From IMG/VR virus record IMGVR_UViG_2734482774_000009: a stretch of 8,682 bases of DNA; one strand, 5' to 3'. The stretch's first letter is position 1. Each line of letters begins with the position of its first letter. The translations under genes were made by a program, and so were the position numbers. Shown here one piece after another: positions 1,364 through 7,434 of the stretch. The DNA comes from a virus. Lineage: Duplodnaviria; Heunggongvirae; Uroviricota; Caudoviricetes. The notes beneath the pieces are model-generated. The model was not told the origin of the DNA. It worked only from the letters and a program-made list of their open reading frames with translations, and ran no database searches.

Positions 1364-1906
1364 TTACTTGCCTTTCTTCTGTAGCAACTTTTCCGGTACG
1401 TTTCCGGTTGTTTCTTTCAAGTAATCAGCCAGTATCTGTGGGAGGTTGTCGGCAACTCTGGCACTGGCATTACAGGCTTTAACCACTTCCCTTTTAAGCC
1501 TGTCCAGCATGGCGGGGGTAATCTGTGGGAAGCTCCTTTGCATAGTAAGCGGGAGGCTGTCCATGATTGATGAAATCTGACTCGCCAGCTTTGAAAGCGC
1601 GTACAGGCAAAACTCAGTATCAATCACGTCACCGCGATCGCGCTCGTTTTTAAGTTCCTGCGCCTCCGCCTGTGCTGTCAGTAATCTGATCCTGACTCGT
1701 AAGAGTTCATCATCATCAATATCGCCTTTGTCGTTTGTAAGCTGGCTAATTGCATTGTTAACCCTATTGTCTATCACGCTGGCAACATCATAAAACGCCT
1801 CACGGCCTTTACGTTCAACGGGAGTCACTCCCCACTTGTCGAACGCTGTCGCACTTACACGGCAGCTTTTCGCCATGTTTTTTTTGTTCATCAGATGAGA
1901 TTTCAT
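1364..1906 (-). CDS. Terminase small subunit, lambda Nu1-like (180 aa)
   Basis: C-terminal two-thirds aligns closely by eye to lambda Nu1 (LTAQAEAQELKNERDRGDVIDTEFCLYALSKLASQISSIMDSLPLTMQRSFP versus lambda LTRAQADAQELKNARDSAEVVETAFCTFVLSRIAGEIASILDGLPLSVQRRFP); N-terminal HTH-like region is more diverged. Start ambiguous among ATGs at 1906, 1891 and 1876 (no strong Shine-Dalgarno for any); the MNKK start at 1891 aligns best with Nu1 MEVNKK. Confidence 0.85.
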   Translation of the reverse strand: MKSHLMNKKNMAKSCRVSATAFDKWGVTPVERKGREAFYDVASVIDNRVNNAISQLTNDKGDIDDDELLRVRIRLLTAQAEAQELKNERDRGDVIDTEFCLYALSKLASQISSIMDSLPLTMQRSFPQITPAMLDRLKREVVKACNASARVADNLPQILADYLKETTGNVPEKLLQKKGK

Positions 1907-2537: not shown

Positions 2538-2873
2538 TTATCGGGCCAGCGGCTGAACGGATACGCCGGAACCCGCAAAGGCGGCGCATTTTTTCGCATC
2601 GGTGTCGACGCTCTCAGGCCAGTTAACGGCGGCAATATTGAATATCCCCGTCTTGTAACACTGTGCTGATTTCTGCTTTGACGTGTCCACAGGGTACGAG
2701 GTCAGATAAACAGCCTTGCCAGATTCCTTACCATCCCACGGCTTAAACTCGCCATTGTCCGCCAGCATCAGCGGGGTAAATTCCTGAATAACGCCAGCAT
2801 CAGCGGCAAAATGTACCAGCGTCGTGGCGACCTGCTGACTGCCTGCAAATAACTCAATGTATGGAGTGTCCAT
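2538..2873 (-). CDS. Head decoration protein, lambda gpD-like (111 aa)
   Basis: Motifs shared with lambda gpD as recalled: TPLML(A/D), WDG, YK(T/S)G(I/T)F, WPE, KK(C/R)(A/T)AFAG; same length class (lambda D is 110 aa). GGGGGGA Shine-Dalgarno before ATG 2873. Confidence 0.85.
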   Translation of the reverse strand: MDTPYIELFAGSQQVATTLVHFAADAGVIQEFTPLMLADNGEFKPWDGKESGKAVYLTSYPVDTSKQKSAQCYKTGIFNIAAVNWPESVDTDAKKCAAFAGSGVSVQPLAR

Positions 2874-2885
2874 AGAATCCCCCCG

Positions 2886-3941
2886 TTAACCAATTTTGAC
2901 GGTAACAAATTTGCGAATATCTGCCGGTACCGGCTGCGGTGCACTGTGTGTCTGCACGTACTCAATCGCCGGATCGCCGTCCTCAATCCAGTTTTTCGGG
3001 TAAAACATGTTTTGTGTTGCGCCCGTTCTTACCGCTTCCTGATCCATTATCGCACCATAGGCCACCAGCCCTTTATTGTTGGTGTTGCCCAGAACCAGCA
3101 AATCAGGCTCAAGGAAATATTTTTCTGTGCCGTCGCTGTCAGCGTATTTGCCGGAATAGACGATAAGGGCAATATCGCCCAGATAGCCTTTAAAGCTCAC
3201 CACTTCGCCCAGGTTTTTACAGGCCAGTTCTGCGGCGGATTCTGAACCACGGGAAAGATCGTACAGCTCACGGAATTTTTTAAAGCTGCGTAACGTGCGC
3301 CATACCTCAGCGCCCATAATCATGACGTTTGCGGGGCAACCAGCCTGATCAGCATAAAGCTCGATGTCATAGATTGGGTCGTGCATCTCTTTATCCTGCT
3401 CGGACCATTTTTTACCCTTGCCCTGCTCTATGATGCAGTTTTCCGGTATTTTCCAGTCTATTTCATAGCGTTCTATGCCTTCGCCCTCAATAATGTTTTT
3501 TCCGGTCGTTATCGCATTCACCGCCAGCCATTCCACGCGCGCTTTAATGGCGTTTACCTGGCGGCGCATGTTGCCAGTAATCAGGCGCATACGTCGGTAG
3601 GTAGGGTCGTTAAGCTGTGCCGGATCTTCTCCAGCCATGCGCATGATGGTTTTTGTTGGATCGATTTCGTGCTTTGGCTTCATGTAGCCAGGTTTAATCG
3701 TGCTGGTTTCGTATCCTTTATCGCGCTGTACCTGGCTGCCAACCATAGGCGAACAAAACGCCGACATGGTGACTTCTTCAATGTCCAGGGTATCCAGCAT
3801 GATGTTTTGGGTGCTGAATGTCGCCACGTTCGGGAAAAACAGCGTGGTAAACAGCGGACTGAATTTAAATTCCGCAATATCCCCGCGATTCAGGTACGCA
3901 AAAAGCTGGTTAGTGTTAAGTGCCGTTGCTTTGCCTGCCAT
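2886..3941 (-). CDS. Major capsid protein, lambda gpE family (351 aa)
   Basis: Blocks matching lambda gpE as recalled: FKF(S/D)PLF, PGY(M/V)KPKHE(I/V), DP(T/A)YRR(M/R)R(L/I)I, VLGNT, YPKNW; similar length (lambda E is 341 aa). TAATG overlap with the upstream 68-aa gene; GGGGGTGA Shine-Dalgarno. Confidence 0.9.
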   Translation of the reverse strand: MAGKATALNTNQLFAYLNRGDIAEFKFSPLFTTLFFPNVATFSTQNIMLDTLDIEEVTMSAFCSPMVGSQVQRDKGYETSTIKPGYMKPKHEIDPTKTIMRMAGEDPAQLNDPTYRRMRLITGNMRRQVNAIKARVEWLAVNAITTGKNIIEGEGIERYEIDWKIPENCIIEQGKGKKWSEQDKEMHDPIYDIELYADQAGCPANVMIMGAEVWRTLRSFKKFRELYDLSRGSESAAELACKNLGEVVSFKGYLGDIALIVYSGKYADSDGTEKYFLEPDLLVLGNTNNKGLVAYGAIMDQEAVRTGATQNMFYPKNWIEDGDPAIEYVQTHSAPQPVPADIRKFVTVKIG

Positions 3942-4231: not shown

Positions 4232-4305
4232 TAAAATTGAGTTGTGTTGCAAATTATGAAATGATTTACAGCAACAGTAGTCACCATGCTGTTAACCTCG
4301 TAAGC

Positions 4306-4348
4306 AAAAGCCCGATAAGCTTCCTCCTGTACTTATCGGGCTTTTTTT
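4306..4348. terminator. Hairpin terminator, likely bidirectional
   Basis: Stem GCCCGATAAG / CTTATCGGGC (4310-4319 / 4332-4341), T7 run after it on the plus strand and an A-run before it (a T-run on the minus strand). Confidence 0.6.
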
Positions 4349-4354
4349 GGGTAC

Positions 4355-4376
4355 AAAAAGCCGGATTTTCTCCGGC
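4355..4376 (-). terminator. Rho-independent terminator after the SSB gene
   Basis: Minus strand reads GCCGGAGAAAATCCGGC then TTTTT; 9 bp downstream of the SSB stop. Near copy of the 2084-2106 hairpin. Confidence 0.65.
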
Positions 4377-4384
4377 CTGTGCGT

Positions 4385-4795
4385 TCAGAACGGAATATCA
4401 TCACCGTAGGGGTCATCGTCTCCCGCTGGTGGCTGATTACCCTGTGCGCCTGTGGTTTTGCGTCTGTTCCCGCCAGGACGTGCCGCACGGGCACTGATTA
4501 CGCTGTCTGCAATAACCTGATAACCCTGCCGCGTTTCCCCGTTCTGTCCGGTCCACTGGCTTATCTGCATCACGCCAGATATGCTGGCAACGTCGCCTTT
4601 TTGATGTTTAGCCAGGAAGTCGGCCTGCTTACCAAATGCCATCACCGATAGCCATAACGTAGCCGTTCCGTCATCTGCCTGGCTGCACGGAAGGGGGACC
4701 GCCATACGCGCCAGCGTCATCGGTGTGCCCTTGCTGGTCTGTTTTACCTGCGGGTCGTCCACCAGCCGCCCGTAAGCGGCTATCTGTGCTGTCAT
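4385..4795 (-). CDS. ssb: Single-stranded DNA-binding protein (short SSB, 136 aa)
   Basis: C-terminal acidic tail DDDPYGDDIPF (E. coli SSB ends DDDIPF); OB-fold-like N-terminal region; Gly/Pro-rich linker. GGAGAGGTGG Shine-Dalgarno; ATGA overlap with the upstream gene. Confidence 0.85.
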   Translation of the reverse strand: MTAQIAAYGRLVDDPQVKQTSKGTPMTLARMAVPLPCSQADDGTATLWLSVMAFGKQADFLAKHQKGDVASISGVMQISQWTGQNGETRQGYQVIADSVISARAARPGGNRRKTTGAQGNQPPAGDDDPYGDDIPF

Positions 4796-5106
4796 GATTC
4801 CACCTCTCCGGTTTTAACGTTGATGGTTGTTACCTGTTCCGCTTCGGCAATCTCCCGTTCTGTCAGCGTGGCAAAGTTTGCCGCCGCTGTGGTCATGAAT
4901 GCGCTTATCAGTTCGGGATGTTCCTTCGCGTATCCTTCCCGCGTGTGGCGGTCTATCGTTCTGATTGCCACCTTTAAGGTGTGCTCAGTCATGTCTAACG
5001 CTTTATATTTTGGCTCTGTTCTGTCTCTGCGAATTTTGGTCATTTGTCGCCCCTGATTCATGTTTTCGGCTGGCATGTTTGTTAAGTGATTTTGATGTAT
5101 GCGCAT
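4792..5106 (-). CDS. Hypothetical 104-aa protein co-transcribed with ssb
   Basis: ATG at 5106 with strong GAGGGGGTGA Shine-Dalgarno; an alternative internal start at 5043 also has AGGGG. Stop overlaps the ssb start. No family recognised. Confidence 0.55.
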   Translation of the reverse strand: MRIHQNHLTNMPAENMNQGRQMTKIRRDRTEPKYKALDMTEHTLKVAIRTIDRHTREGYAKEHPELISAFMTTAAANFATLTEREIAEAEQVTTINVKTGEVES

Positions 5107-5153
5107 TTATTTTCACCCCCTCGTTTAAAAAGTTTTTAGTTGTGCCTCCCCCC

Positions 5154-5382
5154 CTCTACCCATCTACCCGAATGCTCATCATGTCAGTAATGGCGCGGCT
5201 TTCAGCGGGTAGATAGCTTTTTGAGCTCCTCTACCTGCCGTCTACCCTGCTACCTGAAACTGATAAAATCAGGTAGAAGAGGTAGAGAGCTTTTATTAGC
5301 CTTCTACCTGGCCCTCTACCCACTTATCATGTTGAATAATATGTATTTATTTCATTCAGGTAGATGGGGTAGAGGGCTTTTA
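5154..5382. repeat. Putative replication origin: iteron array plus AT-rich segment
   Basis: At least 11 copies of the hexamer core TCTACC / GGTAGA in both orientations within about 225 bp, where about 4 would be expected by chance in the whole window. Three extended copies GGTAGA-nnGCTTTT at about 5208, 5281 and 5368. AT-rich stretch at 5326-5357. Lies immediately downstream of the primase stop (5390). Confidence 0.65.
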
Positions 5383-5389
5383 CAAAAAA

Positions 5390-7138
5390 TTATAAAAACG
5401 CGTCGCAATCGTCTGTTGTAATTGCGTTGGTCTGCGTTACTCCCTTAACTTTTCGCGTAATATATTCATGCCCGTAAACTTTCGCCGCTGGCTTCATGGC
5501 CTTGCTGAACTCAGCCACGTTTAGCGGTTTGCTCCTGCCTGCGTATGCCATAAACGCCAGATAGACGCGGTAAAGGCTGTTCCTGGTCGTGTACTTCACT
5601 GAATCACCACCGCCACCCATCATCAGGCCGCGCGCTTCCTCCAGAAAATTCAGGAACTGGCAAAACTCAATAACCGGATCCGTCTGTTGCTTTATTGCCA
5701 GTGCTTCATCACCGTCACGCTGTTCCAGTAGTAAAGCCCTCGCCTTTTCAGGGTCGGTAAAGTTCGCCAGCAAGCGGCGGATAATAACGGGGATTTCAGC
5801 CGCAATTTTTTCCGGTAGTTCCCTGTCTTTTTCGGCCTCACTAACAATATTGTCGAAACGGAAAATCACGCGACGACGTGCCACACCTCCGGCCCGTTCG
5901 GTGAATATCATCGGGTTATTATTGGTCGCCAGCACCACCGCCCTGATTACCGCCGTGAAACGCTTTTCATATTTCGGGTTTATTTCCACGGGGTCGCCGC
6001 CCGTGATTTTCTTGATGCCCGTTCCTTCGCCTGTATATTTCGGCTGGTCTGCCAGGACGATAAGACGACTCCCGACAACCTGCGCACGTCCACCAGCATC
6101 ATCAAGCGATGTCATTTCAGCGCTTACCGTGTTCTGTTTCCCTGCCAGAAGGCTGGCTATGTGTGTGAATGTACTTTTACCGCTCCCGCCGTCTCCGGTG
6201 GCCTCAATAAACATCTGCCAGTCGTACCGGTTCGCCATAATCATGTACAGCGCGGCACATATACGCATCATCTTGCGCGGGTCTTTTCCGGCTGCGTGAT
6301 CAAGCCATTTATGAAAGTTTGGCGCGTTGTCGCGGATATTCTCCCCTGGTGCTGGTGGCGTGTATTCAATGCCGTTGTGCGTGGTGATCCAGTTCTCCGG
6401 CGTGTGCGGGGAAAATTCCCCTGTTTTCAGGTCAAGCGCACCATTGGCGAACGGCAACAAATCGCCGGACGGCTCGCCCATTGGTTCGGCAATAACTTTT
6501 AATGCTTCCACGGCGTTATTGATTACGCGCTTGCTGAAAGTGGCCCTGTGCTCTGAATAGATCGCCACCATTTCGCGGCTAAGTTCCATTGTGCTGACCG
6601 GACACCATACCCCGCCGCGCCATACGTGAACGATTTCACTTTCCGGATGCACACAAACGCCATCAAATCGACCAGCAAGCATCTGTGCGCGCTCACTGTC
6701 TGCCATTTGTGCCAGTTGCGTATTTTTCTGCTCCGGCATGGTAAGCCCTGCGGCAATATTTTCACGCTCAGCATTCAGATAGCGCCGCCAGTTTTCACAC
6801 TTCTGGACGTGCATTCCTTCGTGGTAAAAATTTGCGTCCTGAATATCTGCCGCCGCCAGCTTCTGACCAATCTTTTTGGTCTCCACTAAATCCAGTTCTC
6901 CGGCCTGGTACAGCCTTACGCGCTTTTTCCCATCCGGAACAATTTTCAGCGCATCAAGTTCGGCAAGCTGCTTTGGCCCAAGCCACACAGGCGGCACATT
7001 ATCGCCGGATGCGGGGCCATCCTGCTCCTGCCATTGTTTCGCGTGCGACCAGGCATCACTACCCGCAAAGATAATTACCTCTGTGTCTTTGTGTTTTATT
7101 CCGCGTGGCTGTTTTTTTACGTTCGGTGCCAGTTTCAT
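5390..7138 (-). CDS. Replication initiator: P4-type primase/helicase (582 aa)
   Basis: Walker A ATGDGGSGKSTF and Walker-B-like LIVLADQ in the C-terminal half, with an N-terminal primase-like region, as in P4 alpha / PICI Pri-Rep-type proteins (recalled). AGGGG Shine-Dalgarno; ATGA overlap with the upstream 99-aa gene. Confidence 0.85.
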   Translation of the reverse strand: MKLAPNVKKQPRGIKHKDTEVIIFAGSDAWSHAKQWQEQDGPASGDNVPPVWLGPKQLAELDALKIVPDGKKRVRLYQAGELDLVETKKIGQKLAAADIQDANFYHEGMHVQKCENWRRYLNAERENIAAGLTMPEQKNTQLAQMADSERAQMLAGRFDGVCVHPESEIVHVWRGGVWCPVSTMELSREMVAIYSEHRATFSKRVINNAVEALKVIAEPMGEPSGDLLPFANGALDLKTGEFSPHTPENWITTHNGIEYTPPAPGENIRDNAPNFHKWLDHAAGKDPRKMMRICAALYMIMANRYDWQMFIEATGDGGSGKSTFTHIASLLAGKQNTVSAEMTSLDDAGGRAQVVGSRLIVLADQPKYTGEGTGIKKITGGDPVEINPKYEKRFTAVIRAVVLATNNNPMIFTERAGGVARRRVIFRFDNIVSEAEKDRELPEKIAAEIPVIIRRLLANFTDPEKARALLLEQRDGDEALAIKQQTDPVIEFCQFLNFLEEARGLMMGGGGDSVKYTTRNSLYRVYLAFMAYAGRSKPLNVAEFSKAMKPAAKVYGHEYITRKVKGVTQTNAITTDDCDAFL

Positions 7139-7434
7139 TTTTTACCCCTGAATCCGTTAATCATGGTTTTCAGCTTCTGGATGTTTGCCCGTGCCCTGGC
7201 GTTGCTGGTGGGCACGTTATGCGGCGCGGTCTGTACCAGAGAAAAATCACGCCGGAACTGATAAACAGGCATCACGCAATCATATTCGTAACCTTCACGG
7301 CGGTAAGTTACGCACCGTCCCGCCACGCCCTTAATCATTACCGTGCCGCCGTACTGGTCGCGGTAAATATCACCGCGCGTAAATTTTGGGTGAGTGTTGC
7401 CACTGGCAGTTAAGCCAGAATATTTAAGTTTCAT
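7135..7434 (-). CDS. Hypothetical 99-aa protein, translationally coupled to the primase
   Basis: ATG 7434 with GGAGA upstream; stop overlaps the primase ATG. Confidence 0.55.
   Translation of the reverse strand: MKLKYSGLTASGNTHPKFTRGDIYRDQYGGTVMIKGVAGRCVTYRREGYEYDCVMPVYQFRRDFSLVQTAPHNVPTSNARARANIQKLKTMINGFRGKK

Follow-up and report, generated by a model that had tools for sequence, protein, structure and literature searches.

The origin of replication of PICIs has been described as lying directly 3´ of the initiator gene, and a pri-ori fragment of the prototype island EcCICFT073 maintains a temperature-sensitive plasmid at 44 °C; deletion of either ori or pri lowers colony numbers, with abolition not stated in the text (Fillol-Salom et al., 2018, ISME J; PMC6092414). 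In SaPI origins, rep is followed directly by six to twelve iterons of five or six nucleotides, arranged about a roughly central AT-rich region that has half of the iterons on each side and is flanked by at least two iterons per side in opposite orientation; the SaPI initiator is an SF3 helicase that loads itself and carries a winged helix at its C-terminus (PMC9371898). Here we describe a dense array of short repeats in an 8682-bp stretch of DNA (the window) and conclude that, as far as its sequence and relatives allow, the array very probably serves in cis as the replication origin of a phage satellite in tqsA, a PICI of the EcCICFT073 type.

The element is an EcCICFT073-type Gram-negative PICI of E. 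coli, inserted in tqsA. Near-identical copies (98.5%) are found in E. coli chromosomes as an ~11-kb island inside tqsA, and in one near-identical island (L001) the genes for an integrase and an AlpA-like HTH regulator lie just past the right end of the window. Positions 1-144 of the window are a truncated tqsA fragment, and the published tqsA PICI att core ATAACAGCA is found at 129-137, ~5 kb from the array; one end of the island therefore lies inside the window. The context is that of a PICI in integrase, HTH regulator, one-way transcription, cosN, a size of ~11 kb and a specific att site. All credible genes of the window are on the minus strand, and their order is the same as in EcCICFT073 (DUF4222, initiator, origin, small ORF, SSB, capsid E-like, D-like, Nu1-like):

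7135-7434, minus strand: DUF4222 gene
5390-7138, minus strand: initiator gene, annotated "DNA primase family", encoding a 582-aa P4-alpha/SaPI PriRep-family SF3 helicase
5107-5389, minus strand: whole intergenic candidate origin region, 283 bp, with homology to what the EcCICFT073 pri-Δori construct lacks
4792-5106, minus strand: 104-aa ORF without a family match, the first gene after the origin
4385-4795, minus strand: SSB gene
2886-3941, minus strand: lambda E-like capsid gene
2538-2873, minus strand: D-like decoration gene
1364-1906, minus strand: Nu1-like small terminase (Rpp-like) gene

Two identical lambda/phi80-type cosN cores (GTTACGGGGCGGCGACCTCGC), one on the plus strand (1167-1187) and one inverted on the minus strand (2037-2057), flank the Nu1-like small-terminase gene; EcCICFT073 has likewise been reported with two cos sites. 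The label cf-PICI (capsid-forming PICI) was considered and dropped, because large terminase, portal and protease genes are absent from the window and the gene order is that of EcCICFT073, a classical cos-type PICI. For the first gene after the origin, the RefSeq start in a near-identical island is an internal ATG at 5043; the longer ORF from 5106 is preceded by a GAGGGGG ribosome-binding site (5115-5121) and agrees in its start with the EcCICFT073 annotation.

Searched on both strands for exact copies of GGTAGA, the window yields 11 matches, all within 219 bp (5155-5373). Dinucleotide-preserving shuffles (n = 200) gave 1.86 matches on average with a maximum of 7, and since none of the 200 reached 11, a chance origin of the cluster is excluded. 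This shuffle control had been proposed with the original prediction, whose dense cluster of cores in both orientations it bears out. On the plus strand, there are six copies of TCTACC (5155, 5163, 5230, 5241, 5303 and 5315) and five of GGTAGA (5208, 5272, 5281, 5359 and 5368), together with a degenerate 12th core, GCTACC, at 5249-5254. An extended form, GGTAGANNGCTTTT, of which three copies had been predicted, indeed occurs exactly three times (5208, 5281 and 5368; 0 expected), and the wider iteron consensus is R-GGTAGA-N-G-G. The array occupies the 283 bp that separate the initiator stop codon (5390-5392) from the next gene, with the first core 16 nt beyond the stop codon and the last core 48 nt ahead of the ATG at 5104-5106. 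From the initiator gene outward, the region is composed as follows:

5359-5373, plus strand: doublet closest to the initiator gene, two GGTAGA cores (5359 and 5368) spaced 9 bp apart, with GGGCTTTT after the second
5321-5358, no strand: AT-rich spacer, candidate DNA-unwinding element, 38 bp, 79% AT
5303-5320, minus strand: TCTACC doublet, cores at 5303 and 5315, 12 bp apart
5272-5286, plus strand: GGTAGA doublet, cores at 5272 and 5281, 9 bp apart, the second followed by GAGCTTTT
5255-5271, no strand: second, short AT-rich spacer, 17 bp, 76% AT, between opposed iteron groups
5230-5254, minus strand: triplet, TCTACC at 5230 and 5241 and degenerate GCTACC at 5249
5208-5213, plus strand: single GGTAGA followed by TAGCTTTT
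5185-5205, minus strand: conserved 21-bp box without iterons, CTGAAAGCCGCGCCATTACTG
5155-5168, minus strand: doublet most distant from the initiator gene, two TCTACC cores (5155 and 5163) spaced 8 bp apart
5123-5136, minus strand: conserved A-tract/T-tract, AAAACTTTTTAAAC on the gene strand, bordering the array on its far side and directly preceding the ribosome-binding site of the next gene

On the gene (minus) strand, the array resolves into three units of ~75-85 bp, each opening with AAAAGC and each containing iteron groups in inverted orientation that face one another across a spacer. Core spacing within doublets is 8-12 bp, roughly one helical turn. The larger spacer (5321-5358), which ranks in the top 0.8% of 38-bp windows for AT content, is flanked by oppositely pointing doublets (5303/5315 and 5359/5368) with further sets beyond, and it lies off-centre, with 2 iterons towards the initiator gene and 9-10 away from it. 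An AT-rich segment had been predicted after the array; the main one is instead this internal spacer between two doublets. Beyond the array on the plus strand, there is an A-rich run (5383-5398), which overlaps the initiator stop codon. No match to the DnaA box (TTWTNCACA), the IHF consensus or GATC was found in 5091-5400, a promoter and terminator consensus scan of 4950-5550 found nothing, and an Rfam scan of the whole window gave no match. GGTAGA/TCTACC was not found as a named iteron in the literature, where PMC6092414 gives the iteron sequences in a figure.

Evidence for origin function comes from the prototype. The primers of PMC6092414 were mapped on the CFT073 locus (L002), which places the pri-ori clone at 5198 to ~7309 and the end of the pri-Δori construct at 7000; the Δori deletion therefore corresponds to L002 7001 to ~7309 and covers all 11 cores. 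These GGTAGA/TCTACC copies (L002 7013-7234) are equal in number to those of the window and mostly at homologous positions, and the two origin regions align along their whole length at ~74% BLAST identity. The region that had been predicted as a candidate origin is thus orthologous to the EcCICFT073 origin, which argues for that reading. Both also have the AT-rich spacer, the 21-bp box and the far-edge A/T tract. The differences are in the bases flanking the cores (GGTAGAGG here versus GGTAGACA/TA in CFT073), the integration site (tqsA here versus ycfD-phoQ in CFT073), one iteron position, a copy of the 5303-5320 doublet being rearranged in the CFT073 lineage with the total still 11, and the initiator, which is 97-100% identical outside the N-domain and 69% identical within it.

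The iterons are conserved among relatives. When nine diverged E. coli origins are aligned, invariant positions make up 52 of the 72 core columns and 70 of the 209 columns outside the cores (odds ratio 5.2; p 2e-8, a value that is descriptive only because the sequences are related). Cores 5359 and 5368 are both invariant in all nine; the outer core at 5155 is invariant in relatives, and the inner core at 5163 varies in locus L004. The equivalent of 5321-5358 drifts in sequence and remains AT-rich. The origin of another relative, L012, also has 11 cores, even though the sequence flanking them has diverged beyond BLAST alignment; BLAST aligned only its part farthest from the initiator gene. A recognizable copy of the origin is present in 544 of 5426 complete E. 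coli genomes (~10%).

The initiator has domain matches to D5_N, the DUF5906 SF3 P-loop and Pox_D5. Its helicase core matches SaPI5 PriRep5 (7OLA, E 1e-14; the identity of this structure was checked in PMC9371898), and residues 486-574 match the origin-binding winged-helix domain of P4 alpha (1KA8, E 8.5e-6). The score for TIGR01613, the P4-family primase C-terminal region, was 108.3 bits with a cut-off of 108.7. The N-terminal 150 aa had no match in Pfam or NCBIfam; in a structure-based check, residues 1-136 corresponded to a degenerate TOPRIM-like N-domain lacking the catalytic acidic residues and a zinc ribbon, such that neither a P4-type N-terminal zinc ribbon nor an intact catalytic TOPRIM domain is present. 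The protein annotated as a "primase" probably cannot prime. The gene that the original prediction called both a primase gene and an initiator gene therefore encodes an alpha-family helicase-initiator, without a recognizable active primase domain.

Among E. coli islands, the protein varies mainly in its N-domain (window 6689-7138, minus strand), with 44-99% identity across L002, L004, L007, L011, L012 and L019 compared to at least 80% for the other domains. The same N-domain is found on the RepA/AAA_25-type helicase of EcCI042 and on database proteins carrying PF13481, and it behaves as a separate module. In the database proteins P0012, P0036, P0040 and P0093, it is joined to a PerC or SSB domain; these fusions may come from islands in which helicase and origin have been lost, or may be gene-calling chimeras.

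Reading across from the EcCICFT073 orthologue for binding, melting and replication, and from protein homology and the SaPI literature for binding, the melting site and hexamer loading, we envisage the following sequence of events. After island induction, the 582-aa protein would use its C-terminal winged-helix domain to bind the RGGTAGANGG iterons, and hexamers would assemble on either side of the spacer at 5321-5358. The spacer would then be melted and the helicase, in the manner described for SaPI Rep proteins, would load itself with no dedicated loader. Primers would probably come from the host primase, given that the N-domain is TOPRIM-like without catalytic acidic residues and zinc ribbon. 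The SSB of the island, encoded two genes downstream, would coat the unwound strands.

A genome-contig scan with the initiator recovered only 3 loci, and further homologues were added by tblastn against plasmids. Alpha-family homologues carry an iteron array of their own directly after the stop codon (L009 4290-4520, L010 3880-4090, L014 2554-2844, L015 2533-2830, L017 2530-2798 and L018 2578-2900), with five further iteron sequences: TGTTCAC in Serratia, TGTTCAT in Morganella and Arsenophonus, GTAGGGA in Klebsiella, GTGGAGA in Rahnella and AGTGGC in the 13.5-kb E. coli plasmid pECO-e618. No array was found directly after the initiator in a P4-like Yersinia homologue (L016). Most of the arrays consist of two direct iterons, ~35 bp of AT-rich DNA and then one or more inverted iterons, and this AT-spacer layout recurs in the Serratia, Morganella, Arsenophonus and Rahnella homologues; in Klebsiella, the first spacer is not clearly AT-rich.

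Comparison of ~11 initiators revealed that iteron class is tracked more closely by identity in the winged helix than by identity in the helicase core. The Klebsiella and Serratia proteins are 82% identical in the helicase core and 34% in the winged helix, and their iterons differ; for P4 and Yersinia (83% and 56%), the iterons are of the same type, and for the window and L012 (94% and 80%), they are the same. Rahnella is an exception, with a winged helix 47-55% identical to those of the TGTTCA group and GTGGAGA as its iteron. On these sequences, the iterons and the C-terminal winged-helix domain of the initiator tend to change together.

A natural replacement at the same site points in the same direction. 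EcCI042 (L019), a listed PICI, shares with the window the island backbone (flanks 94-96% identical), the tqsA site, an origin after the helicase gene and the N-terminal domain (59% identity). It differs in helicase class (AAA_25/RepA-type), in the DNA-binding part and in the iterons: window 5051-6983 is replaced (L019 5732-7178) by a RepA-type helicase and a 200-bp origin with AAAGTGAG iterons, an alternative replicon cassette. The iteron array therefore travels in one cassette with the helicase and the DNA-binding part of that protein.

That the array was exchanged with the helicase and not with the downstream genes also argues against a different role, in which the array would serve mainly in transcriptional control, the initiator on its 11-12 sites blocking or tuning read-through into the SSB and capsid genes and origin activity being secondary. 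The setting would suit such a role, as the array is inside a run of genes all reading one way, no terminator-like or sigma-70 promoter-like site separates the initiator gene from the next gene, and the farthest doublet is ~35-50 nt upstream of the next ribosome-binding site. We nevertheless consider it improbable, since deletion of the orthologous segment lowers maintenance of a plasmid carrying only the initiator and that segment (PMC6092414), and the layout of the array matches SaPI and PICI origins (PMC9371898). Whereas the plasmid test on the orthologue speaks against a purely regulatory roadblock, the lack of a promoter or terminator between the genes means that the origin might have a side effect on read-through.

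There is also a slim chance that the array is a helper required in cis, like crr of P4, and that initiation takes place at another iteron cluster of the island. The initiator is of the alpha family, and in P4 (L013), the array directly after the alpha gene (4291-4590) is crr, with ori ~4.5 kb away, so the positional equivalent of the array in P4 is crr, not ori. In placement, the parallel that the original prediction drew with P4 ori is therefore one with crr, while its parallel with SaPI and PICI placement holds. The complete islands L001 and EcCICFT073 (L002), however, each have a single cluster, the only other GGTAGA being one isolated copy inside the integrase gene, and EcCICFT073 5198 to ~7309, comprising the initiator and this one array, suffices for plasmid maintenance. 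The presence of only one cluster makes a crr-like helper unlikely. Finally, it is scarcely credible that the repeats are a packaging, integrase-arm or partition site, or an artefact of chance or coding: short repeats in two orientations are also known at att arms, partition sites and packaging sites, but the cosN cores are elsewhere (1167-1187 and 2037-2057), on which ground a cos or packaging role for the array was rejected, the att core ATAACAGCA is ~5 kb off (129-137), no partition family was matched among the proteins scanned or is annotated in the island, chance is excluded by the shuffles, and the plus-strand ORFs (4965-5216 and 5221-5421), which we reject as coding and which had been taken for artefacts from the outset, are not conserved in relatives, where the stop-free stretches shift in frame, position and length.

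Within the array, here read as the origin, one conserved element lacks iterons. Diverged E. coli PICI origins carry the 21-bp box CTGAAAGCCGCGCCATTACTG (5185-5205) almost unchanged; as a pattern with one ambiguous position, it matches 8 origin loci of E. coli as well as L014, a Klebsiella island that has the box although its iterons differ (GTAGGGA). The box is not AT-rich and has no match to the promoter, terminator, DnaA or IHF consensus. Because the TOPRIM-like domain of the initiator looks catalytically dead, we tentatively raise the idea, doubtful as it is, that the box is a second cis element for recruitment of a host factor (e.g. host primase or replisome) or a leading-strand start site. 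If so, these PICI origins would be two-component, with variable iterons for their own initiator and a fixed site facing the host. At the far edge of the array, the A/T tract has counterparts elsewhere: runs like AAAACTTTTTAAAC close the Morganella array (L010) and each 120-bp repeat of P4 crr.

An origin of this kind is already known, and the finding, though correct, is ordinary because the matching prototype segment has already been described and tested. Its value is in precise annotation, with iteron coordinates and consensus, the three-unit build and a candidate melting site, and in the leads that it offers for satellite replication and incompatibility, namely a "primase" that probably cannot prime, an iteron-free box and the exchange of helicase/origin cassettes.

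Comparison with SaPI1, SaPIbov1 and SaPI5 reveals agreement in iteron number and place, with 11 exact and 1 degenerate hexamers here, and in the opposed flanking iterons, two TCTACC (5303 and 5315) facing two GGTAGA (5359 and 5368). The initiator, with a helicase core homologous to PriRep5 and a winged helix homologous to that of P4 alpha (1KA8), may likewise be a self-loading helicase that recognizes its iterons through this C-terminal domain. The central AT-rich region of SaPI origins, in contrast, is not matched, as iterons here are divided 2 versus 9-10 and there is a second AT-rich spacer (5255-5271). Unlike SaPI origins, this origin is built of three repeated units, has unrelated iteron sequences, belongs to a Gram-negative host and is crossed by one-way transcription.

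The alpha protein of P4 is 52% identical to the initiator in the helicase core but only 31% in the winged-helix domain, and it has the zinc ribbon and catalytic TOPRIM residues that the initiator lacks. The type I iteron of P4 is TGTTCACC, compared to the GGTAGA core here; it is the Serratia, Morganella and Arsenophonus homologues, rather than this island, that carry TGTTCAC-type iterons. Where P4 has ori and crr far apart, the complete islands L001 and L002 have one cluster. Nevertheless, P4 and this locus have in common short iterons in both orientations, a spacing of ~9-11 bp and an array placed directly after the initiator gene, and P4 crr shares the repeat-of-repeats build with an A/T tract closing each unit.
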